Below are positions 5,132-29,803 of a DNA stretch of 63,381 nt, piece after piece. This DNA comes from Patescibacteria group bacterium (GTDB lineage Bacteria > Patescibacteriota > UBA1384 > JBAYJO01). The notes under the pieces were generated by a model. The model was not told the origin of the DNA. It worked only from the letters and a program-made list of their open reading frames with translations, and searched no databases. How positions within the stretch are numbered: the stretch's first letter is position 1; each line of letters begins with the position of its first letter. The position numbers were made by a program, and so were the translations under genes. The DNA lies in the NCBI GenBank assembly GCA_041665085.1, contig JBAYJO010000005.1:1-63381 (forward strand), read 5' to 3'.

Positions 5132-5144
5132 ATTAATTATTATT

Positions 5145-10311: not shown

Positions 10312-10360
10312 TATAGTTAGATGGGGGGTTTCGGATGACGCATTCTCGTGTCTCACTAGT

Positions 10361-10537
10361 GTTCGACACTTAAGTCAAAAGTTCTTAAAGTCTATAAAGT
10401 TTAAAAGTTAATGGAATTTACTATTATATAGTTTTTTCAACCAACTTTATAAACTTTCGACTTTTAACTTTATAAACTGAAGTATCGAGCGGTAGCGAGA
10501 TACGAGACAAAGTTACAAAATCAATTGCTAGTCGAAC
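10361..10537 (+). repeat. 23S expansion hairpin 2 (a tandem relative of 10151-10311)
   Basis: Base stem gttcgac / gtcgaac. The arms are agtcaaaagttcttaaagtctataaagtttaaaagtt and caactttataaactttcgacttttaactttataaact, followed by aagtatcgagcggtagcgagat. Confidence 0.7.
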
Positions 10538-11291: not shown

Positions 11292-11323
<32 letters not shown>

Positions 11324-11404
11324 GAAAGCGTAACAGCTCACTAGTCAAGGTTTATTGCGCCGAAGATTTAACGGGGCTCAAGCATAGCACCGAAGCTGCG
11401 GATG

Positions 11405-11566
11405 GCCGTGCACAGCACGGAAATTCCAATAATCAAGTAACAATAACCAAATAAATCACAAATTAAAAATTACAATATTCAATTTTTTTTGGATATTAAA
11501 TAATTGAAATTTGGTGATTGTTTGGGATTTGTATCTTGTAATTTGGATATTCCGTGTTGTACGCGG
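11405..11566 (+). repeat. IVS-like insertion module in 23S helix 45, near-identical to the 16S insertion
   Basis: It lies between caccgaagctgcgg and ggtagaggagcgttc, which is the helix-45 IVS site known from Salmonella, Leptospira and Coxiella. Long identical runs are shared with 1445-1605 (caagtaacaataa, caaataaatcacaaatt, aaaattacaatattcaa, atttgtatcttgtaatttgga). Confidence 0.8.
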
Positions 11567-12197
11567 TCATGGTAGAGGAGCGTTCTTGTTGCGATGAAGC
11601 CGAAGTGTAAACCGAGGTGGAGCGACAAGAAGTGAGAATGTTGGTATGAGTAACGAATTATCCTGACGAGAAATCAGGACACCGAATATCCAAGGTTTCC
11701 CCCGCAACGATAATCGACGGGGGGTTAGCCGGGCCTAACCCATTAAGTTGGGGATGGACAGCAGGTTGATATTCCTGCGCTTCTGTAGTTTTGTTTGATA
11801 AGACGCTCTGTGAAAAGCCTCGAAGAAAGTTGGTAGTTCGAGAGGTAGGACGCGGAGACTAGAAAATTTGAAAAACGTTAAGGCTACAGAACCCGTACCG
11901 CAAACCGACTCAGGTGGTTGAGGCGAGGAGCCTCAGGTGATCGAGAGAACCCTTGTTAAGGAACTCGGCAATAAAGCGTCCGTAACTTCGGGATAAGGAC
12001 TGCCCGCCTCATCGGCGGGCCGCAGCTAAAGAGTTCCAGGCGACTGTTTACCAAAAACTTAGGTCTATGCTAACCCATTTTGGGGATGTATATGGGCTGA
12101 TGCCTGCCCAGTGCTAGTAGGTTACGGGGAGGATTGATTCCGCTTTCGGGCGGATGAGGTTCGAACTTAAGCCCTAGTGAACGGCAGCAGTAACTAT

Positions 12198-12938
12198 GAA
12201 CAAGTTGTAGTTATAAAACTTGGCTATATGCTGGAACATCTCGTTTAGGTCTTTGGTAGGTTATATTTGATAAATATACCTAAAAATCCAAAGAATAGAG
12301 ACAATCAGCAGGAAAGACTCAATAAAAGGAGGTAAATGAGTAGTAATCAACTCATGATTCCAGACCACATAGGGTGGTATATTAGTGGATTTTGTGATGG
12401 CGAAGGTAGTTTTAATGTTTCGCTTCGCAGGAAAACTGATTATAAAATAGGATGGCAAGTGGTGTTAAGTTTTAATGTATCTCAAAGAGATATTACAATG
12501 CTTGCACTTATAAAACGCTATCTGAAATGTGGGATCATAAAGAAAAGACAGGATGGATTATATTCTTATGATGTAACTAATCCAAATGCAATAACAAATA
12601 CAATCATTCCGTTTTTCGAAAAGTTTCGCTTTTTTTCTGCTTCAAAGAAGTATAATTTTAGACTTTTTGAGCAGATAACTAAGCTTGTGGCTGACAAAAA
12701 ACATCTTTCGCCGGAAGGATTTCAGGAAATAATGATTTTAAGAGAGAAATTGAATCCCGGGAGAGGTAGAACAAGAAAGTATAATATTGCAGATGTCTTA
12801 ATAAATTGAGTATCCTCAGAGACTACACGCCAAGACCCGATAATTTATCGGGTATGATATAGTCCGACCTCTATGGAGACATAGAGAGCATGATAGAAAT
12901 ATTTATGCCCTTGATTGATTATCAAGGCAACAAATGTG
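12198..12938 (+). mobile_element. Group I intron A at the E. coli-equivalent site after U1917 (H69 loop)
   Basis: The 5' exon ends ..gtaactat and the 3' exon resumes aactgttctatggt. The internal guide GTAGTT (12207-12212) pairs with exon AACTAT through a G.U. Core elements are ggctatatgctggaa, acaatcagcaggaaag and gatatagtccgacc. The terminal nucleotide is G at 12938. Confidence 0.8.
12336..12809 (+). CDS. LAGLIDADG homing endonuclease (single-motif, I-CreI-size) encoded in intron A
   Basis: 157 aa with the motif YISGFCDGEGSFNV and an SD (aaaggagg) upstream. It lies entirely inside intron A. Confidence 0.85.
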   Translation: MSSNQLMIPDHIGWYISGFCDGEGSFNVSLRRKTDYKIGWQVVLSFNVSQRDITMLALIKRYLKCGIIKKRQDGLYSYDVTNPNAITNTIIPFFEKFRFFSASKKYNFRLFEQITKLVADKKHLSPEGFQEIMILREKLNPGRGRTRKYNIADVLIN

Positions 12939-12952
12939 AACTGTTCTATGGT

Positions 12953-13251
12953 AGGAAAGCTGCCTTAGTGAGGTAGTCAAACCTCTGCTCGAACTTTCTG
13001 TGCCAGGAAAGATGTAGAGTAAAAATTCGACTATATGCTGGAAACTCTCTAGAATTCCAACGGGAAACCGGTTGGGCTGTGGAGACAATCAGCAGGGAAG
13101 TCCGCCTAGGTGGATCCCTCAACGACTATACGTCGAATGCCTATAAAAAATTCTGAAAATGATAATAGGTAAAGATATAGTCTGATCTGCATGGCGATAT
13201 GCAGAGTTTATTTTGGGAACAAATAAACCATCGAAAGATGTAACAAAATTA
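12953..13251 (+). mobile_element. ORF-less group I intron B at the site after U1931 (boundaries +/-2 nt)
   Basis: The 5' exon ends ..ctatggt. The guide GCCTTAG (about 12960-12966) pairs with it. Core elements are cgactatatgctggaa, acaatcagcagggaagtcc, cctcaacgactatacg and agatatagtctg. The 3' exon resumes agcgaaattcc. Confidence 0.7.
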
Positions 13252-13271
13252 AGCGAAATTCCTTGTCGGGT

Positions 13272-13973
13272 AAATAACGGAATTTGCCCGAGTAGTGCCG
13301 TGAGGTGCTATTAGTACACTGGCTAATAACGGGGAAACCCCTTTGGGGCAATCCCGTGGGAAGTCGGTCGCCATTTGGCGACTTGACCCCGTAACGACTG
13401 ACTCGAAAGATGAGATTCGATAATATCGAATAATACGCCAGCTCTTACTGAAAAAAGTGTGCTATGAAGTTCTAGAAAGGAGAATGTGGATATACATTCT
13501 TATATGACTGGTTTAACTGAAGGTGAAGGTTGCTTCTGTATTTCCTTTACTCAACGCAAAAAGTTGAATACTGGAATTGAAGTTAGACCTAGTTTTTCAA
13601 TCAGTCAGAATGAAAAGAATCTAGAATTGTTAAAAAGAGTTCGACAATGTTTTGACTGTGGTGGAATACGCTACTCAAGTCAAGATAGGAATTACAAATT
13701 CGAAGTGAGAAGTATTGATGATTTGATAAAAATTATCATTCCTCATTTTGAAAAATATCCTTTGATTGGAGCAAAAGCAGTGGATTTTGAAAAATTTGCT
13801 CAAATTTGCTGGATGATGAGATCAAATCTTCATCGCAACAAAGAAGGATTAATCAAAATAATTGATTTGGCTTATCAAATCAATTATGGAAAAAGAAAAT
13901 ATTCTAAAGAAGAACTTCTAAGGCATATGGTAAGATGAAAAGATAGTCTAAAGCATTGGCAACAATGTAAATG
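13272..13973 (+). mobile_element. Group I intron C at the site after U1951
   Basis: The 5' exon ends ..cttgtcgggt and the guide is GCCCGA (about 13286). Core elements are tgaccccgtaacgactgactcgaaag and aagatagtc. The terminal G is at 13973 and the 3' exon resumes aagttccgaccc. Confidence 0.8.
13486..13938 (+). CDS. LAGLIDADG homing endonuclease (single-motif) encoded in intron C
   Basis: 150 aa with the motif YMTGLTEGEGCFCISF and an SD (aaaggag) upstream. It uses a GTG start. Confidence 0.85.
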   Translation: MDIHSYMTGLTEGEGCFCISFTQRKKLNTGIEVRPSFSISQNEKNLELLKRVRQCFDCGGIRYSSQDRNYKFEVRSIDDLIKIIIPHFEKYPLIGAKAVDFEKFAQICWMMRSNLHRNKEGLIKIIDLAYQINYGKRKYSKEELLRHMVR

Positions 13974-14249
13974 AAGTTCCGACCCGCACGAATGGCATAA
14001 CGGTCTGGAAACTGTCTCAACAAGGGGCTCGGTGAAATTACAATGCCGGTAAAGATGCCGGCTACCCGCAGCAAGACGAGAAGACCCCGTGGAGCTTTAC
14101 TACAATCTGATATTGGGTTTTAAAATAACATGTGTAGGCTAGGTGGGAGTTTAGACGAAAGGTGAAATACCACCCTTGTTATTTTAGGACCCTAACACTC
14201 AATGCGAGTGGACAGTGTCTGGTGGGTAGTTTGACTGGGGCGGTCGCCT

Positions 14250-15212
14250 TAATATTAGCTTTCTTCGTTAAGCTATAGGGGCGTCTTGGCTATATGCTGG
14301 AATACCCGGTGTATGGTATAATACTCATAGAACATTAGTTCTAAAGTAAAAATTTATACCTGCGGTATAACCTATTTGGTATATACCACCGGACAATCAG
14401 CAGGGAAGTCCGCAAAAGCGGACCCCTCAACGACTATACGCCAAGCTTTGTATCAAATATAAAAGCAAATTGTCCCAATTGATACAGGGAAGATATAGTC
14501 TGAACTACATGGCGACATGTAGATCTTTGATCAATTATTACAAGATCAAAGAATTCAAGAAAAATAATTCTATGTATAGTAAAAAAATTGAAACATACAA
14601 GCAAAAACTTAAATTAACTTCTCAACAACGAGAGATATTAGTTGGTTTGTTACTTGGTGATGGTCATCTTGAAACGCAAAACAACGGCTTAACCTATCGA
14701 TTGAAAATAGAACATGGTGCTATACAAAAGGATTATGTTGATTGGCTTTATGAAATCTATAAGGATTGGGTATTAACTCCTCCACAGATAAAACAAAAGA
14801 AAACTGGTGAAATCATAACAGAAAATGTTTGGTTCAATACAGTTAGTCATATTGCAATGCGCTATTATGGCAAGCAGTTTTATCAGAAAGGAAAAAAAAT
14901 ATTACCTAAGTATATTAGTAGATTATTAAAACCATTGACCCTTGCGATTTGGTTTATGGATGACGGCTCATTAAAGTCGAAAGACCATCGAGCTTTAATT
15001 CTAAACACACAAGGATTTATCATCAAAGAGATTGAAATGTTGCAGAAAGGGCTAAAAGAAAAATATTCTATTGAAGCCCAACAGAGAAATCAAAAAGATG
15101 GTATCCAGCTTTTGATGGTTGGAGAATCGGCAAAAGAGTTTGCGCGAATTATTTCGCCATATTTATTGCCACAATTCAACTACAAACTTGGAAAATTGAA
15201 TTAACAAAATTG
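14250..15212 (+). mobile_element. Group I intron D just 3' of the P-loop (about E. coli position 2262)
   Basis: The 5' exon ends ..ggggcggtcgcct and the guide is GGGCG (about 14275). Core elements are ggctatatgctggaa, acaatcagcagggaagtcc, cctcaacgactatacg and agatatagtctg. The terminal G is at 15212 and the 3' exon resumes cctaaaatgtaacggagg. Confidence 0.8.
14572..15204 (+). CDS. Double-motif LAGLIDADG homing endonuclease encoded in intron D
   Basis: Motifs LLLGDGHLE and WFMDDGSLK. The start is taken at the first ATG after the ribozyme P7/P9 segment; the track start at 14470 would run through core RNA. Confidence 0.8.
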   Translation: MYSKKIETYKQKLKLTSQQREILVGLLLGDGHLETQNNGLTYRLKIEHGAIQKDYVDWLYEIYKDWVLTPPQIKQKKTGEIITENVWFNTVSHIAMRYYGKQFYQKGKKILPKYISRLLKPLTLAIWFMDDGSLKSKDHRALILNTQGFIIKEIEMLQKGLKEKYSIEAQQRNQKDGIQLLMVGESAKEFARIISPYLLPQFNYKLGKLN

Positions 15213-15370
15213 CCTAAAATGTAACGGAGGCGTTCAAAGGTCAGCTAACTACGTATGGAAATCGTAGTGATAGTGCAAACGCATAAGCTGGCTTGACTGC
15301 AAGACCTACAAGTCGAGCAGGTGCGAAAGCAGGAGTTAGTGAACCTGTGCCACTGAATGATGGGGGCACA

Positions 15371-15407
<37 letters not shown>

Positions 15408-15450
15408 TATAGCGCCCAATAGTCCATATAGACGGCGCTGTTTGGCACCT

Positions 15451-16320
15451 TAACACATTGGGGTGCTGCAGAAGTAATTCTGCACCAACAATTTGGCTTA
15501 TAACGGTGAACTCCGACTGCTAGTTTATCCACAAGACCGTTCGTATTATGTTCGGTATAATATAAGTGATATAAATTAGTAAAGGACAATACCGTGGGAA
15601 GTCTATCGTCAACTCAACACGCAATCTTAGTTGGAAGTATGTTAGGAGATGGAACACTTCGACGACAAGATAATCGATTGAACGCATTGTTTGAAGTAAA
15701 TCATTCATATGCTTTTAAAGATTATGTCGATTGGAAGTGTGAACAGATGAAAGAATATGTAATAACCTCTCCTAAATCAAGAAAAGGTAAAGGAATGCGT
15801 GTTGCTTATCGTTTTACGACTCGAAGTTTGCCAATTTTTACAGACTATTATAAATGGTTCTATAAAAATGGGAGAAAACAAATTCCATTAAATCTTGAAC
15901 TTGATCCGCAAATTCTTGCGGTATGGTTCATGGATGATGGAAGCAAGAGTCGTAGTGCTTACTATCTTAATACCCAACAGTTTTCTCTCTGTGAACAAAA
16001 GATTCTGCAGATGAAATTAGAGAAAGACATGGGAATTAAGTCTACTCTTAATCGTGATAAAAAATATTTGCGGTTAAGAATTAGCACAGAAAGTGCAAAA
16101 TATATGACTTTAATTGTTGAAAAATATATTTTACCTTGTTTTCGATATAAGTTGACATATGACCCCGTAACGACTGACCCGAAAGGGAAGATTCTGACAT
16201 TAGGTCAGGATAACACGCCAACCCCTATTACAAAAAACTCAATGATATGGTTTTAAAAACCTAAATCAGAGAATAGGGTGAAGATATAGTCTGCACCATA
16301 CGAAATTATGGATTCATGTA
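15451..16320 (+). mobile_element. Group I intron E in the peptidyl-transferase centre (after U2500)
   Basis: The 5' exon ends ..tttggcacct and the guide is GGGTGC (about 15462). Core elements are tgaccccgtaacgactgacccgaaag and aagatatagtctgc. The 3' exon resumes cgatgtcggctcg. Confidence 0.75.
15594..16256 (+). CDS. Double-motif LAGLIDADG homing endonuclease encoded in intron E
   Basis: 220 aa with motifs GSMLGDGTL and WFMDDGSKS and a GTG start. The C-terminal roughly 30 codons overlap conserved ribozyme core sequence. Confidence 0.8.
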   Translation: MGSLSSTQHAILVGSMLGDGTLRRQDNRLNALFEVNHSYAFKDYVDWKCEQMKEYVITSPKSRKGKGMRVAYRFTTRSLPIFTDYYKWFYKNGRKQIPLNLELDPQILAVWFMDDGSKSRSAYYLNTQQFSLCEQKILQMKLEKDMGIKSTLNRDKKYLRLRISTESAKYMTLIVEKYILPCFRYKLTYDPVTTDPKGKILTLGQDNTPTPITKNSMIWF

Positions 16321-16727
16321 CGATGTCGGCTCGTCGTATCCTGGAGCGGTAGTACGTTCCAAGGGTTTGGCTGTTCGCCAATTAAAACGGCACGCGAGCT
16401 GGGTTCAGAACGTCGCGAGACAGTTCGGTCTTAATCTGCTGTGGGCGTTTCGAAGTTTGAAGAGGGTTCCCTTCTAGTACGAGAGGACCGAAGGGAGCGA
16501 ACCTATAGTGTATCGGTTGTCCTGCCAAGGGCATTGCCGAGTAGCTACGTTCGATATGATAACCGCTGAAGGCATATAAGCGGGAAGCTTGCCTCAAGAT
16601 TAAACTTCGTCATTAGACTGGTTGTAGACCACGACCTTGATAGGCTCTAGGTGTAAGCGCAGTAATGTGTTCAGCCAAGGAGTACTAATAGTCGAACAAC
16701 TTTTAACATTGCAACTACATAAAGCAT

Positions 16728-16840: not shown

Positions 16841-16973
16841 CCCTTTAGTGTTGGTTCCTTCGCGAGATGGATACACCTCTTCCCATTCCGAACAGAGTCG
16901 TTAAGCATCTCAGCACCGATGATACTTGGACCGCAAGGTCCTGGGAAAGTAGGTCGGGACCAGCACTAAGGGG
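16841..16973 (+). rRNA. rrf: 5S rRNA (with an extended terminal helix)
   Basis: cccattccgaacagag..gttaagc...ccgatgatacttgg..cctgggaaagtaggtcgg matches the 5S loop/helix signature. The terminal pairing is ccctttagtgttggt / accagcactaagggg. Confidence 0.85.
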
Positions 16974-18436: not shown

Positions 18437-19068
18437 GTTATACTTTCTCCATTTTTTAATATTTTCGCAATTGGACAGGTTTTGGCGAAATCGTTTACAT
18501 CAACTGGGAACATTGGACTATCATAATGAATCGGAATTGCGACTTTAGCGCCAACTGCTTCGGTGAATTTTGTTGCTTCTTCTGGATTCATTACGACTAC
18601 ACCACAAATAGGAACAAACAATATTTCTGCTTGAGGTTTTTCGTCTAGATAAAGAGTATCTCCAGGATGATAAATTCGATTATTGATAAGAAAACCAATG
18701 ACTTCTGGAATCGCACTGCCATTTGGCGGTTGGCCATGAGTTGATTTAACTCCTTTGATATTAAAATCTAGAACATTGATTTCTTGTTCAGATTCTAATA
18801 TTTCAGAATTTATATTTTCATGATCTAAAAGAGTTTTAACTGATCTATTTGTAAAAATTCTTAAGTTAGGATTGTTTTCTTTAATTATTTTGATTGCTTC
18901 TGGCTGAAAATGATCTCCATGTTCATGAGTGATTAATAAAATATCGATTTTACCCCAATTATTTGCTGAAAAATTATCGTTATAACAATAAGATCCTGGG
19001 TCAATCAGAATTTTTTTATCATTTTCTTCAATTAATATTGCAGATTGAGGGTATTTAGTGATTTTCAT
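18430..19068 (-). CDS. MBL-fold metallo-hydrolase
   Basis: The LLITHEHGDHF (HxHxDH) motif plus later H and D residues. It overlaps the downstream gene by 7 nt, suggesting an operon. Confidence 0.75.
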   Translation of the reverse strand: MKITKYPQSAILIEENDKKILIDPGSYCYNDNFSANNWGKIDILLITHEHGDHFQPEAIKIIKENNPNLRIFTNRSVKTLLDHENINSEILESEQEINVLDFNIKGVKSTHGQPPNGSAIPEVIGFLINNRIYHPGDTLYLDEKPQAEILFVPICGVVVMNPEEATKFTEAVGAKVAIPIHYDSPMFPVDVNDFAKTCPIAKILKNGESITW

Positions 19069-19152
19069 AGTTTTCCTTGATTAATTAGTTATAATTTAAC
19101 ATTTATGGGTATATTTTTCAATTATGACTCTAAACGAGAAAGGCCGTCAACA

Positions 19153-19737
19153 TTATTGTTGACGGCCTTCGGTATCGGTGCCTGTGTCAAGAGCGAGGAG
19201 ACTACTATCTCGAAGCCACTGAATCTTCGGCAGGCGGTCGGTTAGGACGGTTTTGATGATTGCCAGTCTTTCAAGATGTGGCAATGCATATGGGAAGACA
19301 TTAAGATATTCCAGCATTTCAGCTGCTGTATTCAAGACGAAGTCTTCACAACTGCGTCCTGCAGGAATTAGATCGCCTTCTACATCGCCTTCTCCGCTGA
19401 AGTAGCTCCAGCCTTCGCTCTCGGCAACAGCTTTTTGATCCTCAAAAATGCTGTGGATTTGGCGGAGTATTCTCGGAGTTTCCAAAAGGTCAGTGAATAT
19501 GACAGCGAGCGAAGGATTCGCTTGCAGTTCATCCATGATTCGTTCGCATATTGTCTTGATCTTTGCGATTGGTCTTTCGAGTTGCTCTTCAAGCTGGTGG
19601 GGATCTGTTTGCTTGGCGAAGCACTCATCGTACACCATTCGCACATATTGTCTTTGTTGGTGCCTCTTCCAGAAGTACCAAACGGCGGCCATGATGACTT
19701 CCTGGTCGCGCAGAGGGATCTGATCTATTCGGTTCAT
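19153..19737 (-). CDS. Hypothetical protein (GC-rich islet 3)
   Basis: 194 aa with an SD (gaggagg), a canonical promoter upstream and the hairpin aaggccgtcaaca-ttat-tgttgacggcctt downstream. I recognise no family. Confidence 0.55.
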   Translation of the reverse strand: MNRIDQIPLRDQEVIMAAVWYFWKRHQQRQYVRMVYDECFAKQTDPHQLEEQLERPIAKIKTICERIMDELQANPSLAVIFTDLLETPRILRQIHSIFEDQKAVAESEGWSYFSGEGDVEGDLIPAGRSCEDFVLNTAAEMLEYLNVFPYALPHLERLAIIKTVLTDRLPKIQWLRDSSLLALDTGTDTEGRQQ

Positions 19738-19767
19738 TCTGGTCGCCTCCTCAAGAAAAGATAGTTC

Positions 19768-19796
19768 ATTATAGTATAAAATCGCTGTTTTGTCAA
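19768..19796 (-). promoter_or_regulatory. Canonical sigma70-type promoter for 19153-19737
   Basis: On the minus strand: TTGACA (19796-19791), a 17-nt spacer, TATAAT (19773-19768). Confidence 0.55.
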
Positions 19797-19982
19797 TAAT
19801 TTATAAGATTAATATTTGTTAAGCGACTATTATTGTTTATGTTTTTTAATTATAAATTTGTTTTTTAGGTTAGCTCTTGGTATGATGGGGTCAAGCTGGA
19901 GGCATATGGTTTGCCGATGGTTAGAGGGCTAATGGTGGCTCTCGAAAACTCTGCCGTATAGTTCGGCAAAGGAGATGATTCA

Positions 19983-20807
19983 GTGATGAGTGAAAAGAAA
20001 AAGAGGAATCTCTCGGAGAGGGCAAAGTCTAGCCTTGAAACATATCTGTCGATAGGCTCGGAAGAGGAGAGAAATAAGGTCTTGATTTCTCCTCGATTTC
20101 TCGAGTCTACCAAAGGGTGGTTGGAGAGTGAGTACTTTGACTTTTGCGATGAGGCGATCAATCGATATCCTCACAACTCACAAGGTCAGAATCTGGTGAT
20201 GTTTTGCCAGTCTATTATGAAGGCTGACTATCTCCATCTCGAGCGGAATATACCCGTTCGCTTCGCAGAGTATTTGATAGATCGTCTGACGAGACTCGTG
20301 AAGTGGGAAGACGAAGAAGAACCCGAACCTGATACCTGCGATCTGTTGCCGGTAGCGAAATGGCTTTACGGCTTGCTTGTCCAGCATCCACCAAGTGTGG
20401 GCAAAGTCAGTACTTTCATCAGGCTTTGCGGTGAGACGCTTGATATCTTCTGGGTTGATAACTACTGCCGCCGACAGATCTCTACAAGTGTTGGGTGGGA
20501 GCGTAGTTTCCGTAACTTACTAAGCAACGGCATGATTGATCGTAGCCCTGGGGATGAGGGTTTCTGGGATGTGTGGAATCTTGCATGTGGCTGTTATCTT
20601 GACCAGTCAAATCCCGAGCACTATTCTCGAGAGCGGCTGTTAATGGATAAACTTACTATCATGAAGTGGAGAGATATGATCGTTTATCCTGACGGATTGC
20701 AGTTGGCAAAGAGCTGTATTGAGGAGCTTGACGGGATAATCGGCAGGAATAAGACGATTGATTTACTGCATCTAAACGGTTGGCCGTCTAAGTTTGATCC
20801 GAAGTAA
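19983..20807 (+). CDS. Hypothetical protein (GC-rich islet 4)
   Basis: 274 aa, W/C/E-rich and soluble-looking. It has a GC-rich leader of about 120 nt (19860-19982) with aaaggag, and the hairpin atccccgggtg...cactcggggat downstream. Confidence 0.55.
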   Translation: MMSEKKKRNLSERAKSSLETYLSIGSEEERNKVLISPRFLESTKGWLESEYFDFCDEAINRYPHNSQGQNLVMFCQSIMKADYLHLERNIPVRFAEYLIDRLTRLVKWEDEEEPEPDTCDLLPVAKWLYGLLVQHPPSVGKVSTFIRLCGETLDIFWVDNYCRRQISTSVGWERSFRNLLSNGMIDRSPGDEGFWDVWNLACGCYLDQSNPEHYSRERLLMDKLTIMKWRDMIVYPDGLQLAKSCIEELDGIIGRNKTIDLLHLNGWPSKFDPK

Positions 20808-21064
20808 GGAGGGATGACTTGATCCCCGGGTGTGTATGCACTCGGGGATTTCGCTTTTTATATCTAGCAGATTTTTCACCATTTTTGTTTTTTCAATTTT
20901 ATTGTTTATTTTTTTTATTTATTGCTTCTAATTTAGTATTTTTAGGTATTTTTTAATTTATCAGTTGATTATTTATATATTTTTATGTATTAATACAGTT
21001 AGTACCTGCAATACGGCTGCTGGCTCCGTTATGACCAGCTACTTTTGCCTTGGAGGCTACTGTA

Positions 21065-21970
21065 ATGGAAAAAGCAAGTTTCGATGAGTTGCAACAGATG
21101 TATCCACCGATCATTGAGCTTAGGCCTGAACGATTCGGACCGGAAGGACAGGTAGCGATCGGCACACTGATTGGATGCGAGGATGATGGCAATCTTGTCA
21201 TTTGGTCCAAGCAGCAAATGCCGACTTATGTTGGTTGTAGTGAAGAGAGCTGTCTTCAGCGAGCAGCTCTAATCGATTTCGGCAGGTTTCTGGGAGATAA
21301 GGTACGAGGTTGGTCACAGTCCAAAATGTTCAGTACTCTTCTCACTAAACAAGGAGAAGCGGATTTAGGGCCACTCATGGTCTGCAACATCATCCGTGAC
21401 TGCATTCGAAGGCGATATGGCAGTGTACTGAATCAGTCGGATGAAACTACTTCGATTCTCCTGCCTGTTCCAGGTCAACTTCGAGAATACTGCGAAGTAG
21501 TTGGATATCGGTTTGAATGTGGTAACCGAGAAAAACATCTTGAACACCGTGCTTACTTCACTCTCTCGCCGGATGCCGATTTGGAATGCTTGCCGGCTTA
21601 CTCTGATCTTCGTGATTATGCGCAGGAAGTGCGTGTTCGCGGTTTGGTCGGTCGCTCTTTCAATCGGTCCGGCAGAGACAACGAGGGTTTCTGCGTCACA
21701 CCTCTTTCGTCTAGTCAAGCACGGATGGTTCAGCTTCGCGTGGCTGCCGAAAGAACGTATCCACGTACTCTCAAGATGCTGCAAGCCATTCAGAAAGCAG
21801 AAGAAACTGACGAAGGAATAGTACAGACTATTCGTGACCAGGGTGTTATTCGCTTTTGGGGGATGAATGAAGTGGAAGACCGTGAGCCAAACATGGAGGA
21901 ATTCTGGGCCATGTGCCGGTATCTTGGTATGTGCTTCACATCCAACGAGCGGTCCGTAATAATGACTTGA
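21065..21970 (+). CDS. Hypothetical protein (GC-rich islet 5)
   Basis: The ATG follows GGAGG (21052-21056). The product is 301 aa and the hairpin tgtggcgtgtcc-ttcg-ggatgcgccaca lies downstream. A roughly 200-nt, extremely T-rich spacer separates it from islet 4. Confidence 0.55.
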   Translation: MEKASFDELQQMYPPIIELRPERFGPEGQVAIGTLIGCEDDGNLVIWSKQQMPTYVGCSEESCLQRAALIDFGRFLGDKVRGWSQSKMFSTLLTKQGEADLGPLMVCNIIRDCIRRRYGSVLNQSDETTSILLPVPGQLREYCEVVGYRFECGNREKHLEHRAYFTLSPDADLECLPAYSDLRDYAQEVRVRGLVGRSFNRSGRDNEGFCVTPLSSSQARMVQLRVAAERTYPRTLKMLQAIQKAEETDEGIVQTIRDQGVIRFWGMNEVEDREPNMEEFWAMCRYLGMCFTSNERSVIMT

Positions 21971-22110
21971 GTCAGGTCCTCAATCAGTATGACTATGTGG
22001 CGTGTCCTTCGGGATGCGCCACAGTTTGTTTGTTATAAAATTGTATTATTTCCCAAATATATTTTTAGAATTTGTGATATAATGACAGTGTAAATAAAGA
22101 AAGGAGAACT

Positions 22111-22578
22111 ATGGCTAGTAGCAGGAAGTTATATCGTTCCAAGACAGATCGAGTATTGTTTGGAGTTTGTGGCGGCATTGGAGAATATTTAGATATTGAT
22201 CCAGTTATAATTCGTTTGATATTTGTGATTTTAACTATTTGGGGCGGAGTTGGCATCTTACTATATATAATTGCGATTTTTGTAATTCCTGAAGAATTGG
22301 GTAGCGGAGTAGAAAAAGACGGAAAAGATACAAAAGAAGAAATTCGCGAAAAAGTTGAAGAATTTGCCAGTGGAATAAAATCCGCTGTTCAAGATCATAA
22401 GTCTTATCGTCGAGGTAGCAGGCCAGATGTTATTTTCGGGATTGTTATAATTGTGCTTGGTTTGATGTTTTTGGCTGGTAATTTATTTTCATGGCTTGGG
22501 ATCTGGAAACTTTGGCCAATTATATTAATAATTATTGGACTTGGTATTTTGTCAGGTTCAGGTAAGGACAAGAAATAA
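22111..22578 (+). CDS. PspC domain-containing membrane protein
   Basis: LYRSKTDRVLFGVCGGIGEYLDIDPVIIRLIFVILTIWGGVGILLYIIAIFVIPEE is a textbook PspC domain. It has an SD (aaaggag). Confidence 0.85.
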   Translation: MASSRKLYRSKTDRVLFGVCGGIGEYLDIDPVIIRLIFVILTIWGGVGILLYIIAIFVIPEELGSGVEKDGKDTKEEIREKVEEFASGIKSAVQDHKSYRRGSRPDVIFGIVIIVLGLMFLAGNLFSWLGIWKLWPIILIIIGLGILSGSGKDKK

Positions 22579-22579
22579 T

Positions 22580-23470
22580 ATGAAATGGTTTTGGGGCCTT
22601 TTAATTTTAATTATTGGAGTTTTGATTCTTGGAAACAATCTTTCGATTTGGACAGCTTCGGATATTGAAAGGTTGTTTGTATTGTGGCCATTGCTTTTGA
22701 TTTTGTTTGGAATTTCTCTTATGGCGAGAAACTGGAAGATGGGTTGGCTTGTGATTTTAGCGGCATTTTGGGGAGCAGCCATATTTGTTTATTTTGCTTT
22801 AATTACTCCTGAAAAACTCGGGATCGAAGATGTTGCGTTAAAAACAACCAGCGAAGATAATTTTTCTGTTGACGCTAGAAGCGGAACAAGTAAAGCAAAA
22901 GTTACTATTAAAACAGGAGCAATAAAACTCGATTTGCACGGCGGGTCAGATAAATTGATTGAAGGACAGATGGTTTCAAATTACGCCAGTCCCGAGGTTA
23001 GCGTGAGTTCGTCAAATGGAGTGACGGAAGCTGAAATTGTGACGAAAAATAAATCGGTTGCAATTGGCAGAGGCAAAAATAATTTAGAATTAAGCTTAAA
23101 TGAAAAAATCCCATTTGATGTAAATATTGATTCAGGCGCTTCGGTTTTGGATCTTGATTTTAGCGATATTGTGTTGCAATCGCTTGATTTAAATTCGGGT
23201 GCTTCAACGCTTGATATTAAAGTGGGCGATAAGGTAAAAGATGGAGCAAACATGACAATTGCTTCAGGAGTCTCAAAAATTACTATTATAGTTCCGTCAG
23301 GACTTGGTGTTGAAATGAAAGCAACCACGCCGCTTTCAACAAAGGATTTTTCCGGTTTTTCGAGTAAAGGAGAAGGAATTTATCAAAGTGATGGATATGA
23401 TGCATCAAGTAAAAAAATTAAAATTAATATAACTGCCGGAGTTTCAACTATTAAGCTAATTACGAAATAA
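22580..23470 (+). CDS. LiaF-like / toast-rack (DUF4097-type) membrane protein
   Basis: N-terminal TM helices (MKWFWGLLILIIGVLILGNNL) are followed by a repetitive beta-rich domain (ldl..gas.l.i.). It starts 2 nt after the pspC-domain gene stop. Confidence 0.45.
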   Translation: MKWFWGLLILIIGVLILGNNLSIWTASDIERLFVLWPLLLILFGISLMARNWKMGWLVILAAFWGAAIFVYFALITPEKLGIEDVALKTTSEDNFSVDARSGTSKAKVTIKTGAIKLDLHGGSDKLIEGQMVSNYASPEVSVSSSNGVTEAEIVTKNKSVAIGRGKNNLELSLNEKIPFDVNIDSGASVLDLDFSDIVLQSLDLNSGASTLDIKVGDKVKDGANMTIASGVSKITIIVPSGLGVEMKATTPLSTKDFSGFSSKGEGIYQSDGYDASSKKIKINITAGVSTIKLITK

Positions 23471-23545
23471 TATTATCTAAGTTCTAAAAAACAGGAGCCG
23501 TCGAGATTACTCAACGGCAAGATTAGATCGTCCTTTTCCTAGTCG

Positions 23546-23995
23546 TTAGTTGGGACGATTTCGACTTTGGAAGAGGATATCGGGGAATGTTGCTGGTTCA
23601 GACGGTGAAGCTGCTTCTTGGCGATTGCCAAAGTGTATGGCTGCAGCGATGATGTTGAATACTATTGCTGCAACATCACTTTGGACATTGATGGCAGTTG
23701 GTACATCGAATTCCGTTGCGTGTACCACTTCATCACCAACTTTGAATAGATCTGTCAAATTGGTTCCGCAGCTTATTCCCGATTTCAGACTGAAGTAAGG
23801 AAGTCCTTTTCCATTTTCAGCCTGTTCACGAGTTGCCCAAAGATCGAGTAGCGAGTATTGGTCATTTTCTCGTATTGATAACCAGTAATTGCCAGCGATC
23901 GTTTTGGCTATCGACAAACCGGGGCGGATTTCTTCTGGATCTTTGCCCAGTTCATAGAAGATAGCTAGTGGGAGCAGTCCTTCTTGACTATCCAT
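23546..23995 (-). CDS. Hypothetical protein (GC-rich islet 6)
   Basis: 149 aa with a structured leader of about 140 nt. The promoter-like site is TTGACA-17-TACTAT (24164-24136, minus strand), with GGGGTTG in the spacer. A hairpin lies downstream (gccgtcgag...ctcaacggc). Confidence 0.5.
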   Translation of the reverse strand: MDSQEGLLPLAIFYELGKDPEEIRPGLSIAKTIAGNYWLSIRENDQYSLLDLWATREQAENGKGLPYFSLKSGISCGTNLTDLFKVGDEVVHATEFDVPTAINVQSDVAAIVFNIIAAAIHFGNRQEAASPSEPATFPDILFQSRNRPN

Positions 23996-24199
23996 TTTGT
24001 GACACCTCTTGTGTATATGGAGGGGGTCTCCCCAGCGGAGGGAGACCCGGAGACCATGAAGTTATTCGCGAGCATTTTTTAGCACGACATTTCTGCAGCT
24101 CGCTTCGTGCTACTTGTGAGCATCCCAGTAACTAAATAGTAGTAAACAACCCCTTTTCTGTCAATAGCTTGTTTACTTTTTTTTTGCTAAGATCAAATT

Positions 24200-25417
24200 A
24201 TGAGAATAATAGCTGATTTACATATTCATTCAAGATTTGCTCGGGCAACGAGCAAATATTTATCTATTCCTGAAATTGCTAAATGGGCAAATATTAAAGG
24301 TATTAATCTAATTGGAACTGGAGATTTTACTCATCCAAAATGGTTTGCCGAAATTGAAGAATATTTAACGATAAATGCAAATGGGTTTTATAGCTTAAAA
24401 TCAGGTGAATATCCTGAAGTATTTTTTGTGCCTCAAGCAGAAATTGCCTCGATTTATACTCAAGGCGGGAAGTGTAGGAGAATTCATACGATTGTAATAA
24501 TGCCGACTCTTAAATCAGTTAAAAAATTTAATGAAATGTTAGGTACTAGGGCAAATTTGTATTCTGATGGTCGACCTATAACCGGAGTTCCGGCAAAATA
24601 TATTGCAAAAATGGCGATTGAAGCAGATCCAAAAAGTCTAATTGTGCCAGCGCATATTTGGACGCCGTGGTTTGCGGTTCTTGGATCAAAATCGGGTTTT
24701 GATTCGATTGAGGAATGTTTTGAAGAAGAAGCAAAAAATATTTATGCGGTTGAGACCGGGATTTCATCAGATTTAATGATGAATTGGCAACTTTCAATGC
24801 TTGATAAATTTACTTTGCTTTCCAATTCGGATGCACATTCTGTTGCTAATTTGGGACGTGAGGCCAATGTTTTTGAAATTTCAGAGAATGATTTTTCATG
24901 TGATGAGATATTTAGAATTATAAAAGAAAAAGACGCTAGTAAATTTAAATATACGATTGAATATTTTCCAGATGAGGGAATGTATCACTATGACGGGCAT
25001 CGTGCGTGTGGCGAGGGGATCAGGATGGCGCCGGAAGAATCTAAAAAAATAAATAAGATCTGTCCTGTTTGTGGAAAAGAAATGACAATCGGTGTGATGC
25101 ATCGAGTGATGGATTTGGCGGATCGGAAATATGGTTTTGTGCCTAATGGTGCAACCGGGCAAAAAAAGTTTATGCCGCTTGATGAGATAATTTCAAAATC
25201 GATCGGTAAGGGAGAGAAGACGAAGACTGTTCAGGAAATTTATAATAAATTTATTGATAAATTTGGGGCGGAATATCCATTGCTTTTAGATACTGATATT
25301 ATAGAATTGAAGAAAGTTGACGAGCGAGTTGGCGAGGCGATTTTGAAAGTGAGAAAAGGAGAGCTTAAAATCGAGCCCGGATATGATGGGACATATGGAG
25401 TGGTGGAGATAAGATAA
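24200..25417 (+). CDS. Endonuclease Q-like PHP-domain nuclease
   Basis: DLHIHSRFARATSK, NLIGTGDFTHP, LSNSDAHS..LGRE, the zinc finger CPVCGKEMTIGVMHRV and the C-terminal PGYDGTYG all parallel archaeal/Bacillus EndoQ (the TIGR00375 family). Confidence 0.75.
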   Translation: MRIIADLHIHSRFARATSKYLSIPEIAKWANIKGINLIGTGDFTHPKWFAEIEEYLTINANGFYSLKSGEYPEVFFVPQAEIASIYTQGGKCRRIHTIVIMPTLKSVKKFNEMLGTRANLYSDGRPITGVPAKYIAKMAIEADPKSLIVPAHIWTPWFAVLGSKSGFDSIEECFEEEAKNIYAVETGISSDLMMNWQLSMLDKFTLLSNSDAHSVANLGREANVFEISENDFSCDEIFRIIKEKDASKFKYTIEYFPDEGMYHYDGHRACGEGIRMAPEESKKINKICPVCGKEMTIGVMHRVMDLADRKYGFVPNGATGQKKFMPLDEIISKSIGKGEKTKTVQEIYNKFIDKFGAEYPLLLDTDIIELKKVDERVGEAILKVRKGELKIEPGYDGTYGVVEIR

Positions 25418-26676: not shown

Positions 26677-26744
26677 TAATAATGTTTTTAAAACGTGAAG
26701 ACCGCCCGTACAATTGTACGGGCGGTCTAGTTGTTCGAGATCTT

Positions 26745-27437
26745 CTACTTGGGTATGAAGTCGGGGAATTTGCAGTAGTATACTGCAAAGTTCTCCACTT
26801 CGAATACAACCATGTCTCCCGGTTTGGCGAAGAAGGCCTCATCGCTGTAGCGCGAGTAAGCTTTCCCGTTGATGATCATAGATCCTTCGATGACGAGAAT
26901 GGTCTCTGATCTTTTCAAGGGGCCAAAGGTGTGCTTCCCGGCAAGTGCTATGCCGGCGCTCATGGATGTCTTTTCTTGTCCATTGAGCTGCAGTCCGATG
27001 CTCATGACGCGGCCATCAGAGAAGCTGTTGTGTCGAAGCTCTGCGATCTGACCAAAACTCATGATCTTGTCGCGAAGATCGATCAGTCTGTCCAAATGCG
27101 TCTTCAGAGCGTCGAGACTGACACATTCGTCTTCTCTTCCCGCTTGGGCATTGCCGATCCGCGTGTTCAATGAACGGCTTGCTTCAGAGAGCTGATTCAG
27201 TGTCTTATTCCTGCTCTCAAGGATCTCTCCCCATGGTGTGGTTGGTGTCATGAATCCTGCCATCCCGGGCAAATCCTTGATTGTGGTGCACAAGTTCCTG
27301 ATTTCCTCCAACTTCCGGAGCTCTTCGGCTGTGAACCCTGTGGTTAAAGTGTAGAATTGGCCGGCGATCAGCACCTTCGCCACGACATAGCCGGTAATAA
27401 CGTCTGTTGAGACAATGCTTTGTATCCAATCGATCAT
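26745..27437 (-). CDS. Hypothetical protein with a C-terminal PpnP/DUF1255-like cupin domain (GC-rich islet 7)
   Basis: The C-terminal roughly 95 aa (FSDGRVMSIG...GKHTFGPLKRSETILVIEGSMII....GDMVVFEVENFAVYYCKF) follow the PpnP pattern F.G.V.SIG...G.YTF.T...E.M.V..G....G..F.VP....F...Y.C.Y. The N-terminal roughly 130 aa are unassigned. Confidence 0.45.
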   Translation of the reverse strand: MIDWIQSIVSTDVITGYVVAKVLIAGQFYTLTTGFTAEELRKLEEIRNLCTTIKDLPGMAGFMTPTTPWGEILESRNKTLNQLSEASRSLNTRIGNAQAGREDECVSLDALKTHLDRLIDLRDKIMSFGQIAELRHNSFSDGRVMSIGLQLNGQEKTSMSAGIALAGKHTFGPLKRSETILVIEGSMIINGKAYSRYSDEAFFAKPGDMVVFEVENFAVYYCKFPDFIPK

Positions 27438-27467
27438 TGTCTTCCTCCTTGTAGTCTCGCTCTGCGC

Positions 27468-27496
27468 ATTATACTATAAATAAGAGTTATCGTCAA
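27468..27496 (-). promoter_or_regulatory. Sigma70-type promoter for 26745-27437
   Basis: On the minus strand: TTGACG (27496-27491), a 17-nt spacer, TATAAT (27473-27468). The SD aaggagg lies before the ATG. Confidence 0.5.
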
Positions 27497-27535: not shown

Positions 27536-28183
27536 ATGGTTTACGCAATTATTTTAGCGGCCGGAAAGAGTAAAAGATTTGGTTCAAATAAGCTTTTAGT
27601 TTTGTATAACAATCGTCCAGTTATTTATATTACTTTAGAAAAATTTCAAAATAATCCAAATATTGATGAAATTATTATTGTTGCAAATGAAGAAATGAAG
27701 AGTAGCCTAAAAAATATTAAAAAAATATTTCCTAAAATTAAAAAAGTTGTTTTAGGTGGAAATTTAAGGCAGGAATCGGTTTATAATGGTCTCATTTCAA
27801 TTAAAAATGCTGATGATTCTGATGTTCTGATAATTCATAATGGCGCTAATCCTTTTATAGATAAAAAAACAATTGACAAGTGCATTGCTCAAACAAAAAA
27901 AATCGGCGCTGTTGTAACTGGTTTTCCGGTGATTGATACGATTAAATCTATTGATTCAAAAAAATATACTTCAAATATTACAGATAGAAAAAATTTGTGG
28001 CATATTCAAACTCCACAAGTTTTTAAGTATCAAATTATTAAAAAAGCTTATGAAAATGCGAAAACTAATAATATAATTGCTACTGATGATTCAACTTTAG
28101 TTGAAGAGATCGGTTATAAGGTAAAAATAGTTAAATGTTCTCGAAATAACATTAAAATTACTTATAAATATGACTTGTCATGA
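27536..28183 (+). CDS. ispD: 2-C-methyl-D-erythritol 4-phosphate cytidylyltransferase
   Basis: AIILAAGKSKRFG..NKL at the N terminus, with VIDTIK and TPQVF blocks typical of IspD. Confidence 0.85.
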   Translation: MVYAIILAAGKSKRFGSNKLLVLYNNRPVIYITLEKFQNNPNIDEIIIVANEEMKSSLKNIKKIFPKIKKVVLGGNLRQESVYNGLISIKNADDSDVLIIHNGANPFIDKKTIDKCIAQTKKIGAVVTGFPVIDTIKSIDSKKYTSNITDRKNLWHIQTPQVFKYQIIKKAYENAKTNNIIATDDSTLVEEIGYKVKIVKCSRNNIKITYKYDLS

Positions 28184-28216
28184 TAAAAATTTAAAAACAA
28201 AAAGAAAAGGAATTTT

Positions 28217-28993
28217 ATGTTGGTACTTCAAGCTAACGCAAAAATAAATTTAAGTTTAGAAATAGTTGGTAAAGAAAATGACGGCTATCATGCAATAAAA
28301 AGTATTTTTCAATCGATTAATCTATCAGATTTTCTTGAAATTAAAAAAAACATCTCTACTCAATTGACTGGGTCGATTTTAACTTCCAAAAATAATCAGG
28401 TAATTTTTAAATCAGTTGTACTTCTTCAAGATTTTGTTAGAAAAACCCTGCCTTGTTCAATCCATCTTCAAAAAAATATTCCAATTGCGGCCGGATTGGG
28501 AGGTGAGAGCGTCGATGCCGCTGCAGTTATAATTGGTATAAATAAACTTTATAATTTATCTTTATCCAAAACTGAACTAAGAGAAATTGCTATAAAGGTT
28601 GGTTCAGACGTGCCTTTTTTTCTAGAAGGCGGTACTAGATTGGTTGAAGGCAGAGGAGAAATTGTTAAAATTTCAAGTAAAATTAAGCCGACTAATTATT
28701 ATGTTTTGGCAAGACCTCATACTAGGGTTTTGACTGCTGAAATTTTTAAAATTTATGACAAACAAAAAAATTTATTTGAAAGTTGTGCTACAGTTTGTCC
28801 CGATATAAAATGTTTAAAGAAATATTTTAGTGGATTTTGTTCAAAACAATATGGGCTTTCTGGTAGCGGTCCGACTATGTTTTGCGGAGTTGATGATTTT
28901 ACTCAAGCTGAAGAGATCGCTTATGGATTAGAAAAATTTAACGGAGATATATTTATTGTTAGACCCGAGAGTGCGGGAGTAAAGATAATATAA
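28217..28993 (+). CDS. ispE: 4-diphosphocytidyl-2-C-methyl-D-erythritol kinase
   Basis: AKINLSLEIVGKENDGYH plus the GHMP kinase motif PIAAGLGGESVDAAA. It is adjacent to ispD. Confidence 0.85.
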   Translation: MLVLQANAKINLSLEIVGKENDGYHAIKSIFQSINLSDFLEIKKNISTQLTGSILTSKNNQVIFKSVVLLQDFVRKTLPCSIHLQKNIPIAAGLGGESVDAAAVIIGINKLYNLSLSKTELREIAIKVGSDVPFFLEGGTRLVEGRGEIVKISSKIKPTNYYVLARPHTRVLTAEIFKIYDKQKNLFESCATVCPDIKCLKKYFSGFCSKQYGLSGSGPTMFCGVDDFTQAEEIAYGLEKFNGDIFIVRPESAGVKII

Positions 28994-29728: not shown

Positions 29729-29803
29729 AAAATGCGAGGCATTGCCAAATTGCTTAGCATCGGCGGACCTACATGCGCAATTTTAGCAATGACTCGCATT
29801 TTC
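29728..29803 (+). repeat. Hairpin element with a conserved loop (TGCTTAGC...CATGCGC family), copy 1
   Basis: The arms are gaaaatgcgaggcattgccaaat and attttagcaatgactcgcattttc. The loop is tgcttagcatcggcggacctacatgcgca. Confidence 0.65.

Follow-up and report, generated by a model that had tools for sequence, protein, structure and literature searches.

Eight compositionally foreign single-gene units in a split rRNA operon region of an AT-rich Patescibacteria genome

Introduction

Phage 'morons', described by Hendrix and colleagues in lambdoid and other tailed phages, are single genes that carry their own promoter and intrinsic terminator and have a deviant composition, and Hsiao et al. are said to have described, in 2005, a 'novel gene pool' of genomic islands. 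Here we analyze eight single-gene units of similar anatomy in a 63,381-nucleotide (nt) stretch of DNA from a Patescibacteria group bacterium (assembly GCA_041665085.1, contig JBAYJO010000005.1, positions 1 to 63,381 of the forward strand), which we call the window. Their open reading frames (ORFs), named A to H, amount to about 5.4 kb of coding sequence within its first 33 kb.

The units resemble phage morons in that each is a self-promoted, self-terminated single gene placed between resident genes, unlike its neighbours in composition, unrelated to the adjacent genes and often obscure in function. In contrast to phage morons, they belong to a cellular chromosome and not to a prophage, with housekeeping genes around them, and some of them occupy the spacer of an rRNA operon; their neighbours are rRNA, tRNA, metallo-β-lactamase (MBL)-fold, PspC/LiaF, Fpg, IspD/E, RecO, GlyRS and division and cell wall (dcw) genes, with no phage gene in the vicinity. 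In Patescibacteria, the transfer of single genes and islands has been described as reaching up to 13% of genome length, most of it between members of the group (PMC12455944). The genomic islets of that work are likewise compositionally deviant accessory genes of unassigned function in streamlined genomes of the Candidate Phyla Radiation (CPR); the units of the window differ from them in that eight single-gene units fall within 33 kb, each coinciding with exactly one predicted transcription unit, and in pairing a host-like strand skew with an unreduced guanine-plus-cytosine (GC) content at third codon positions (GC3). Unlike classical genomic islands, they show no tRNA, integrase or direct-repeat hallmarks. 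With integron cassettes they share the small single-ORF module, the 3' hairpin, diverse and often obscure functions and foreign composition, but they lack attC core sites, an integrase and an array, have promoters of their own and occur on both strands. The kind of feature is known (compositional orphan-gene islets, morons) and of an ordinary sort, found here at unusual density; what sets the locus apart is this density, the match between GC-rich block and transcription unit, a shared promoter box and a mismatch between strand skew and GC content.

Results and discussion

The eight units differ in composition from the surrounding genome

The GC content of the window is 35.9%. As a native reference for composition we used 41 genes of the window, which have a GC of 0.330 ± 0.033 (maximum 0.409) and a GC3 of 0.235 ± 0.040 (maximum 0.332). 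Against this set the eight units stand out with GC 0.44-0.505 (z 3.4-5.4) and GC3 0.37-0.63 (z 3.5-9.9). An earlier reading of the letters of this DNA (the sequence-only reading) had singled out three ORFs (A, B and C) and five similar units as strikingly unlike their neighbours. All eight are present where it placed them, and the measurement that it had proposed, GC and codon usage per gene, puts every one outside the native range, so that the claim survived a comparison that might have overturned it. The difference extends to the encoded proteins, in which the fraction of the amino acids F, Y, M, I, N and K (FYMINK) is 0.22-0.29, at or below the native minimum (native genes 0.29-0.47). Arginine is mostly encoded by CGN and leucine mostly by CTN codons, the reverse of host usage.

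Over about 25-50 nt at either end of each unit, the GC content rises from 12-26% to 45-60%. The adjacent AT-rich spacers have 17-28% GC, compared with 28% in pooled native intergenic DNA, which agrees with their earlier description as native-looking. In 50-nt windows, GC reaches about 45-60% even in the untranslated leaders of B, C and F (124, 75 and 130 nt, respectively), so that its high level belongs to the DNA segment as such and cannot stem from the choice of codons or amino acids. Judged by these measures, the eight are compositionally foreign single-gene units.

The ORFs have the signals of separately transcribed genes

Codon periodicity reached z 3.4-13 for the eight ORFs, compared with -0.4 and 1.3 for the 16S and 23S rRNA controls, and all eight have G-rich first and A/T-rich second codon positions. 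Each ORF is preceded by a GGAGG or AGGAG Shine-Dalgarno (SD) site at proper spacing, and in 8/8 units a hairpin directly follows the stop codon. The hairpins of A, B and C, which were folded, were more stable than shuffled sequence, with z -8.0, -5.2 and -5.1, respectively. Consensus or near-consensus -35/-10 pairs were found for A, D, E, F and G, and weaker candidates for B, C and H. An SD site, a promoter and a GC-rich hairpin terminator for every unit, as seen by the sequence-only reading, are therefore borne out by the signals, with weaker promoters for B, C and H. Its 'long structured leader' did not hold up: the leaders (75-130 nt) are GC-rich, but folding of those of B, C and F gave no significant structure (z -0.5, -1.0 and -1.8). 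No unit had an Rfam match at the gathering threshold, and positions 19000-24300 gave none at E ≤ 1 either. Structured non-coding RNAs or riboswitch leaders were considered as an alternative and rejected in view of the periodicity, the Rfam result and the leader folding. Because of the codon periodicity, SD sites and terminators, spurious ORFs are very unlikely, and the eight ORFs appear to be real genes with predicted separate transcription.

The units occupy variable slots and are absent from related loci

The sequence-only reading was right to assume a CPR genome, because the closest relatives of the Fpg protein of the window come from Patescibacteria metagenome-assembled genomes (MAGs) labelled Berkelbacteria, 'Saccharibacteria' or Patescibacteria group. 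These proteins are 54-60% identical to it from end to end, and a partial match in locus L016 reaches 83%. The MBL-fold neighbour as query found no closer relative in JGI metagenomes, and there was none among GTDB representatives either.

Thirteen related loci keep the order Fpg, RecO, GlyRS, MraZ, FtsL-like, penicillin-binding protein (PBP). All of those that reach far enough upstream have 23S-5S rRNA before Fpg, at a distance of 0.9-6.9 kb (8.6 kb in the window). Units A-B-C and F lie in the slot between 5S and Fpg, G lies between Fpg and RecO, H between GlyRS and MraZ, and D and E in the 16S-23S spacer. By tblastn (E < 1e-4) no homologue of any unit was found in 80 fetched loci, including the 13 with conserved synteny; these relatives are distant, with Fpg identities of 40-60%. 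The units are thus not syntenic core genes in the 13 related genomes; core homologues of that kind are what the sequence-only reading had named as speaking against it.

GC-rich mini-genes with promoter and terminator also occur in the Fpg-RecO slot of relatives (L014 at about 6200-6480, L012 at about 5008-5370). With rRNA masked and codon periodicity required (unmasked ORFs inside rRNA inflate the excess), 9 of the 34 genome-specific ORFs in relatives exceed the GC3 of their own genome's shared genes by >0.12, the mean excess not being significant (p = 0.12). Several related MAG loci have 41-44% GC. A Cu-oxidase_4/YfiH-like gene with GC3 0.52-0.56 lies between RecO and GlyRS in two related MAGs (L006 15678-16511 and L016 3960-4811, both on the minus strand; 50% identical), which shows that in this clade a GC-rich gene can keep the same place in different genomes. 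Conversely, IspD and IspE of the methylerythritol phosphate pathway (27536-28993) are AT-rich and host-like and have no counterpart in the Fpg-RecO slot of related loci, so that the variable slots also hold genes of native composition.

The arrangement of the units recurs at 99.98-100% identity in three further contigs from ENA and JGI assemblies, which may have drawn on shared reads. These contigs (L001, L086 and L087) represent the same population as the window and differ by 1-2 single-nucleotide polymorphisms, all outside the islands; an apparent indel in L001 proved to be a run of N. Because three other assemblies reproduce the junctions, a one-off chimeric assembly is very unlikely.

Anatomy of the individual units

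Unit A (19140-19796, minus strand) has a perfect TTGACA-17-TATAAT promoter (19768-19796), a GGAGG site and a coding sequence at 19153-19737 for an orphan protein of 194 amino acids (aa); its terminator hairpin (19140-19169) overlaps the stop codon. Its GC is 0.484, its GC3 0.50 and its periodicity z 6.9. Unit B (19833-20850, plus strand; GC3 0.53) begins with a weak promoter-like site picked by eye (19833-19857), followed by the GC-rich leader (19862-19985), an AGGAG site, a coding sequence running from 19986 (or GTG 19983) to 20807 (273/274 aa) and a terminator at 20821-20850. The likely starts of B and C are ATG 19986 and ATG 21065, with GGAGG/AGGAG 7-11 nt upstream. Between B and C lies a 139-nt spacer with 17% GC (20851-20989), near the 3' end of which we assigned by eye a candidate promoter for C (TTGATT...TATTAAT, 20965-20994, plus strand). 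Unit C (20990-22023, plus strand; GC3 0.45, periodicity z 5.2) consists of the 75-nt GC-rich leader, a GGAGG site, a coding sequence at 21065-21970 for an orphan protein of 301 aa with 13 cysteines, and a terminator with a UUCG loop (21996-22023).

In the 16S-23S spacer, unit D (3368-3862, plus strand) has the promoter TTGACT-ttga-GGGGTTTG...TATTAT (3368-3395), a coding sequence at 3432-3800 for an orphan protein of 122 aa and a terminator at 3838-3862; it lies just 3' of one copy of a 190-nt repeat described below. Unit E (5557-6479, minus strand) is preceded by TTGCAT-17-TATAAT (6451-6479), encodes 253/255 aa (5588-6349/6355) and ends in a terminator at 5557-5577; of the two possible starts, ATG 6349 is better spaced from the AGGAG site than ATG 6355.

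Unit F (23497-24164, minus strand) carries the box TTGACA-gaaaa-GGGGTTG at 24136-24164, its 130-nt GC-rich leader, a coding sequence at 23546-23995 for an orphan protein of 149 aa and a terminator at 23497-23518. The leader contains a perfect 10-bp GC hairpin (24025-24047, minus strand; GGUCUCCCUC...GGGGAGACC) about 30 nt before the start codon, which may be an attenuator or translational control element. Unit G (26700-27496, minus strand) has a TTGACG...TATAAT promoter (27468-27496), a GGAGG site, a coding sequence for 230 aa (26745-27437) and a terminator hairpin (26700-26727); its GC3 of 0.63 is the highest of the eight and its periodicity reaches z 13. Unit H (32073-32619, plus strand), between GlyRS and mraZ and 3' of another copy of the 190-nt repeat, has the box TTGACT-tgaaa-GGGGTTG (32073-32090), a GGAGG site, a GTG-start coding sequence for an orphan protein of 143 aa (32155-32586) and a terminator at 32594-32619. 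An antisense ORF at 32170-32655 has no matching signals, and the plus-strand ORF was taken as the gene.

The encoded proteins are unrelated to one another

Mutual comparison revealed no paralogy among the eight proteins, and at 90% identity clustering each was a singleton or grouped only with its own fragments. A, B, C, D, F and H had no match in Pfam, PHROG, NCBIfam or PADLOC, and A had none in the PDB either. The sequence-only reading, which had recognized no family for A, B and C and had counted the other five as units of the same kind, was thus correct for six of the eight; the exceptions are E, which is guanylate-kinase-like, and G, which has a Ppnp/cupin-like C-terminus.

Searches of large protein databases covered A, B, C and G. 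A had no homologue other than itself. None was returned for C and G, a weaker negative than that for A, as the sensitivity of these searches is doubtful (identical fragment representatives, P0003 and P0009, were also missed). For B, exhaustive HMMER searching of 1.84 billion representatives found only four relatives, with 33-39% identity, which share with it the invariant motifs R..G...D....D..CRR and HYSR. These homologues lie on contigs of 40-49% GC, where they have native composition. No sequence in IMG/VR, the JGI metagenome contigs or the PDB matched a profile built from the B family. The AlphaFold (AF2) model of B, built from the five-sequence alignment, is all-alpha (predicted local distance difference test, pLDDT, 77; predicted template modelling score, pTM, 0.66). 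Comparison with PDB and BFVD gave no significant structural match for it (best E 0.2-0.5, TM not above about 0.3). The model portrays B as an all-alpha protein, predicted to carry an enzyme-like set of invariant residues. The single-sequence AF2 model of C was uninformative (pLDDT 35).

E matched the Pfam family Guanylate_kin (PF00625) with 28.9 bits (cut-off 25.2, E-value 1.1e-6) and phrog_1815 with 1.4e-14. A Walker A P-loop (GPPSIGKT) and a TSRPKREGEVNG motif are both visible in its sequence, and the TSRPKREGEVNG stretch resembles what we take to be the GMP-binding motif of guanylate kinases. Its likeness to guanylate kinases lies in the P-loop and this stretch; it differs by scores far below the cut-offs of the NCBIfam equivalogs (42.6 bits compared with 263, and 38.7 compared with 160) and by an N-terminal extension of about 45 aa. 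E is probably a divergent guanylate-kinase-like P-loop kinase and unlikely to be the housekeeping Gmk. The C-terminal 90 aa of G matched Pfam Ppnp (DUF1255 cupin) over profile positions 2-92 of 92 at a borderline 25.8 bits (cut-off 25); the NCBIfam score was 21.3 bits against a cut-off of 143, and the N-terminal 130 aa had no family match. Against the PADLOC defence models no protein matched better than E = 0.0027, generic P-loop matches being confined to E. IMG/VR held no relative of A, B, C or G, INPHARED none of C and for E a single match at 28.6% identity only, and plasmid collections gave no support for a plasmid origin of the units.

The units show no sign of forming one system

A is transcribed divergently from B, and a strong terminator and the AT-rich spacer lie between B and C. 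In the four contigs with a B homologue, the neighbouring genes are unrelated to A, to C and to one another. In one of them (L002) the genes are oriented -/+/+ as in A-B-C, but the proteins on either side of the B homologue bear no relation to A and C, and a conserved B neighbourhood was rejected. With eight non-paralogous proteins, no conserved neighbourhood around B and no PADLOC match, the 'system-like' content suspected by the sequence-only reading was not substantiated, and the gene context gives no sign that the eight units would belong to one system.

Flanking sequences, a shared promoter box and a 190-nt repeat

We found no direct repeats or target duplications flanking the units beyond chance, no recombinase or integrase among the ORFs of the window that were scanned, and no capsid, terminase or att-like repeat near the islands. 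The 3' hairpins are mutually unrelated, perfect GC stems with tetraloops and T-rich tails and, by inspection, contain no attC core sites. D and E lie near tRNA-Ile and tRNA-Ala, without repeats. A dedicated cassette-like mobility mechanism, one of two origins offered by the sequence-only reading, is not supported, given these flanks, terminators of an ordinary and unrelated kind and the absence of a recombinase among the scanned ORFs.

Three copies of the motif TTGAC-N(2-7)-GGGGTT are present in the window, placed precisely in front of D, F and H and correctly oriented; 0.12 occurrences are expected by chance, and 0/100 shuffles contained three or more. The TTGAC-N4-5-GGGGTTG box noted before is thus real upstream of these units, except that D reads GGGGTTTG instead of GGGGTTG. 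The similarity of the three promoters ends beyond about 18 nt, and relatives show no enrichment of the box. Apart from this box, nothing hints that some units might share regulation or origin.

The 190-nt repeat is present in three plus-strand copies (3162-3365, 31846-32024 and 51008-51193) of 78-85% identity, each consisting of a GC-rich hairpin followed by a long AU-rich hairpin with arms of about 33 nt. The copies lie directly 3' of plus-strand genes (16S rRNA, GlyRS and a class I aminoacyl-tRNA synthetase). Two adjoin D and H on the upstream side and the third (51008-51193) has no island; none was found in any fetched related locus. A mechanically called ORF (31837-32067) falls in one copy. 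The repeat could be a 3' element, a terminator module or a repeat resembling a miniature inverted-repeat transposable element.

Origin of the units

We favour, with a probability of about 0.6, the view that complete single-gene transcription units were acquired horizontally, repeatedly and independently of one another, and entered permissive slots of a conserved backbone. Each unit would comprise a 5' leader, a coding sequence and an intrinsic terminator, insulated like phage morons or chromosomal genomic islets, and would be transcribed from a promoter of the sigma-70 type situated at its 5' border, in AT-rich DNA like that of the host. The slots would be the variable intergenic positions in 23S-5S-[slot]-Fpg-[slot]-RecO-[slot]-GlyRS-[slot]-MraZ/dcw, together with the 16S-23S spacer, and the products unrelated cytoplasmic proteins, B being all-alpha, E nucleotide-kinase-like and G cupin-type at its C-terminus. 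We infer that the DNA was taken up and then joined by illegitimate or homology-facilitated recombination, that the genes are actually expressed and have been retained by selection, and that they came from a thinly sampled pool of genes at about 40-50% GC, the donors perhaps being Patescibacteria of higher GC or mobile elements of such bacteria. Repeated single-gene acquisition from a higher-GC donor had been suggested by the sequence-only reading; it fits the absence from 13 relatives and the native composition of the B family on contigs of 40-49% GC, which points to a pool of only moderately higher GC. The actinobacterial source that it had mentioned does not fit, because the island GC (44-50%) and that of the contigs with B relatives are far below actinobacterial values. 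Acquisition agrees with the frequent transfer of islands and single genes published for Patescibacteria (PMC12455944).

Several observations weigh against this origin. No donor was found, and no close homologue was seen for 7/8 proteins. No recent gain or loss was seen, the nearest relatives being about 54-60% identical in Fpg (83% in the partial match of L016) and the same-population contigs near-identical. Third-position GC skew, referred to the plus strand, is positive in 43/45 native genes, with means of +0.35 for plus-strand and +0.31 for minus-strand genes, which fits a leading-strand signature along the whole window. The islands follow it: their GC3 skew is positive in 7/8 whatever the orientation of the gene (mean +0.235), their AT3 skew is negative in 8/8, and the coding-strand GC3 skews of plus- and minus-strand islands do not overlap (Mann-Whitney p = 0.014). 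Islands with the replication-strand skew of the host are not fresh arrivals in random orientation, but had mutation produced the skew at the present site, a far deeper decay of GC3 would be expected; either the donors were co-oriented relatives, or something keeps GC high. A related difficulty concerns the spacers among A, B and C, which are host-like (17-19% GC) while the synonymous sites of the units stand at 45-53% GC; a single imported block decaying neutrally should have lowered both alike. Several explanations of the mismatch can be offered: separate insertions into native AT-rich DNA, co-oriented higher-GC relatives as the source, or maintained GC.

Among the alternatives, the units could be old lineage-restricted residents, their GC kept high by selection acting on mRNA or on translation, or by gene conversion biased towards GC where accessory loci are prone to recombine, while the remaining genome is at an AT-rich mutational equilibrium. 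The orientation-independent host skews, the contrast between AT-rich inter-island spacers and GC-rich synonymous sites, the host-type promoters and ribosome-binding sites, and the box common to D, F and H, a sign that they may have joined the regulation of the host, would all follow. We nevertheless consider long residence unlikely, given that none of the 13 loci with conserved synteny holds an orthologue, that amino-acid composition is non-native too (FYMINK 0.22-0.29, arginine mostly CGN), and that even the untranslated leaders are GC-rich without significant structure. We also know of no precedent for gene-specific upkeep of a GC3 excess of 0.2-0.4 in an AT-rich bacterium. Extending this idea, the islands would be a maintained, partly co-regulated accessory set kept GC-rich over the long term, with D, F and H as one regulon under the TTGAC-N4-5-GGGGTT box; such upkeep would explain the host strand skew and host-like spacers, and if true would imply a gene-specific force against AT mutation pressure, or a continual, orientation-preserving exchange of slots among related higher-GC Patescibacteria. 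This extended version strikes us as improbable. Also improbable is an origin as remnants or cargo of Patescibacteria phages or mobile elements, whether morons left by prophage decay or transduced genes. The moron-like anatomy (own promoter, own terminator, deviant composition), an orphan status typical of the phage gene pool, the better score of E against phrog_1815 (1.4e-14) than against Pfam Guanylate_kin (1.1e-6) and the position of the L002 homologue of B between two family-less ORFs would agree with it, yet A, B, C, D, F and H match no PHROG family, IMG/VR gave no relative of A, B, C or G, INPHARED gave none of C and only the distant match of E, and the islands have only housekeeping neighbours and no integrase, capsid, terminase or att-like repeat near them.

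A dedicated integron-like or site-specific mechanism that places promoterless ORF-plus-hairpin modules downstream of host promoters would account for GC-rich blocks that start at about the transcription start and end just past the 3' hairpin, and perhaps for the position of D and H just 3' of repeat copies and the box common to D, F and H. The hairpins are, however, classical intrinsic terminators without attC-type core sites as far as inspection shows, flanking direct repeats do not exceed chance, no integrase or recombinase is among the scanned ORFs, the third repeat copy has no island and all copies simply trail plus-strand genes, and the units are scattered over both strands instead of arrayed, which leaves such a mechanism very improbable. 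An artefact also has to be weighed, either a metagenome assembly that is chimeric or structured, GC-rich RNA genes that contain spurious ORFs: in AT-rich genomes, GC-rich stretches frequently are RNA genes, long ORFs in more than one frame occur in several island regions, and a GC-rich unit at 163-497 of the window does look like a non-coding RNA. Here the periodicity (z 3.4-13, compared with <1.4 for rRNA controls), the correct SD spacing, the G-rich first and A/T-rich second positions, the protein-level homologues and invariant motifs of B, the lack of an Rfam match and the identical junctions in three other assemblies all speak on the other side, and misassembly would implausibly have had to place all 16 junctions exactly at promoters or terminators. 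For the eight units an artefact is effectively refuted, and we give it hardly any credence.

If acquired as we favour, the units would be a clean and dense case of a streamlined AT-rich CPR genome gaining accessory genes as insulated single units in a few permissive gaps, including a split rRNA operon. They yield eight candidate accessory proteins, among them B, a small new family with a confident all-alpha model and no PDB/BFVD fold match, and a candidate shared promoter/operator box. The mismatch between skew and GC decay is measurable and could help to date or explain gene gain in Patescibacteria. They reveal no new mobility mechanism or functional system.

Other features of the window

The rRNA operon of the window is split, with 16S at 1376-2984, 23S at 9764-16695 and 5S at 16850-16965. 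The 6.8-kb spacer between 16S and 23S (2985-9763) holds, besides tRNA-Ile, tRNA-Ala and units D and E, a stand-alone GIY-YIG protein (5124-5396, 90 aa), an MscS-like channel gene and several family-less AT-rich ORFs. The 23S gene is broken up by group I introns or insertions with four LAGLIDADG-type ORFs (12336-12809, 13486-13938, 14470-15204 and 15594-16256), and Rfam detects two group I introns in it (12936-13204 and 14222-14522). In contrast to the GC-rich units, the LAGLIDADG ORFs are AT-rich and host-like in composition. The 5S gene is followed by housekeeping genes for an MBL-fold hydrolase, PspC/LiaF, Fpg, IspD/IspE, RecO, GlyRS, the dcw cluster (MraZ, RsmH, PBP, MraY, MurD and FtsW), RecJ and another PBP.

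Both 16S (1445-1606) and 23S (11405-11567 and 9959-10040) contain an AT-rich insertion of about 160 nt with a small GC hairpin at its end, the 16S and 23S copies being 86% identical. It is also present in the 23S of two related MAGs (L018 322-474 and L015 3390-3541; 78% and 68%), and its occurrence in 16S, 23S and relatives suggests a mobile or duplicated rRNA intervening sequence.

A ninth GC-rich unit, at 127-497 on the plus strand, is non-coding. Its promoter, TTGACA-16-TATAAT (127-154), would give a transcript of about 330 nt without a long sense ORF, and its terminator hairpin (465-485) lies just upstream of clpP. The minimum free energy is -139 kcal/mol (z -6.7 against shuffles). Rfam gave no match for this unit even at E ≤ 1, and ARAGORN found no tmRNA in it; it is a candidate for a new kind of structured RNA or for a strongly diverged RNase P, 6S or signal recognition particle-type RNA.

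Direct and inverted copies of an AT-rich motif family, AGTTTATAAAGT(T/C)CGTAAAGTT, lie at 4205-4235, 4746-4789, 7294-7349, 10169-10203, 10432-10478 and 33265-33323. An inverted pair brackets a family-less ORF (4239-4745), and the copy at 33265-33323 lies just 3' of mraZ. Finally, a 36-nt repeat with 89% identity between its two copies is found downstream of RecO (29741-29776) and upstream of RecJ (43717-43752), in two native intergenic regions that are unusually GC-rich (38% and 41% GC); it may be a small RNA or regulatory element.

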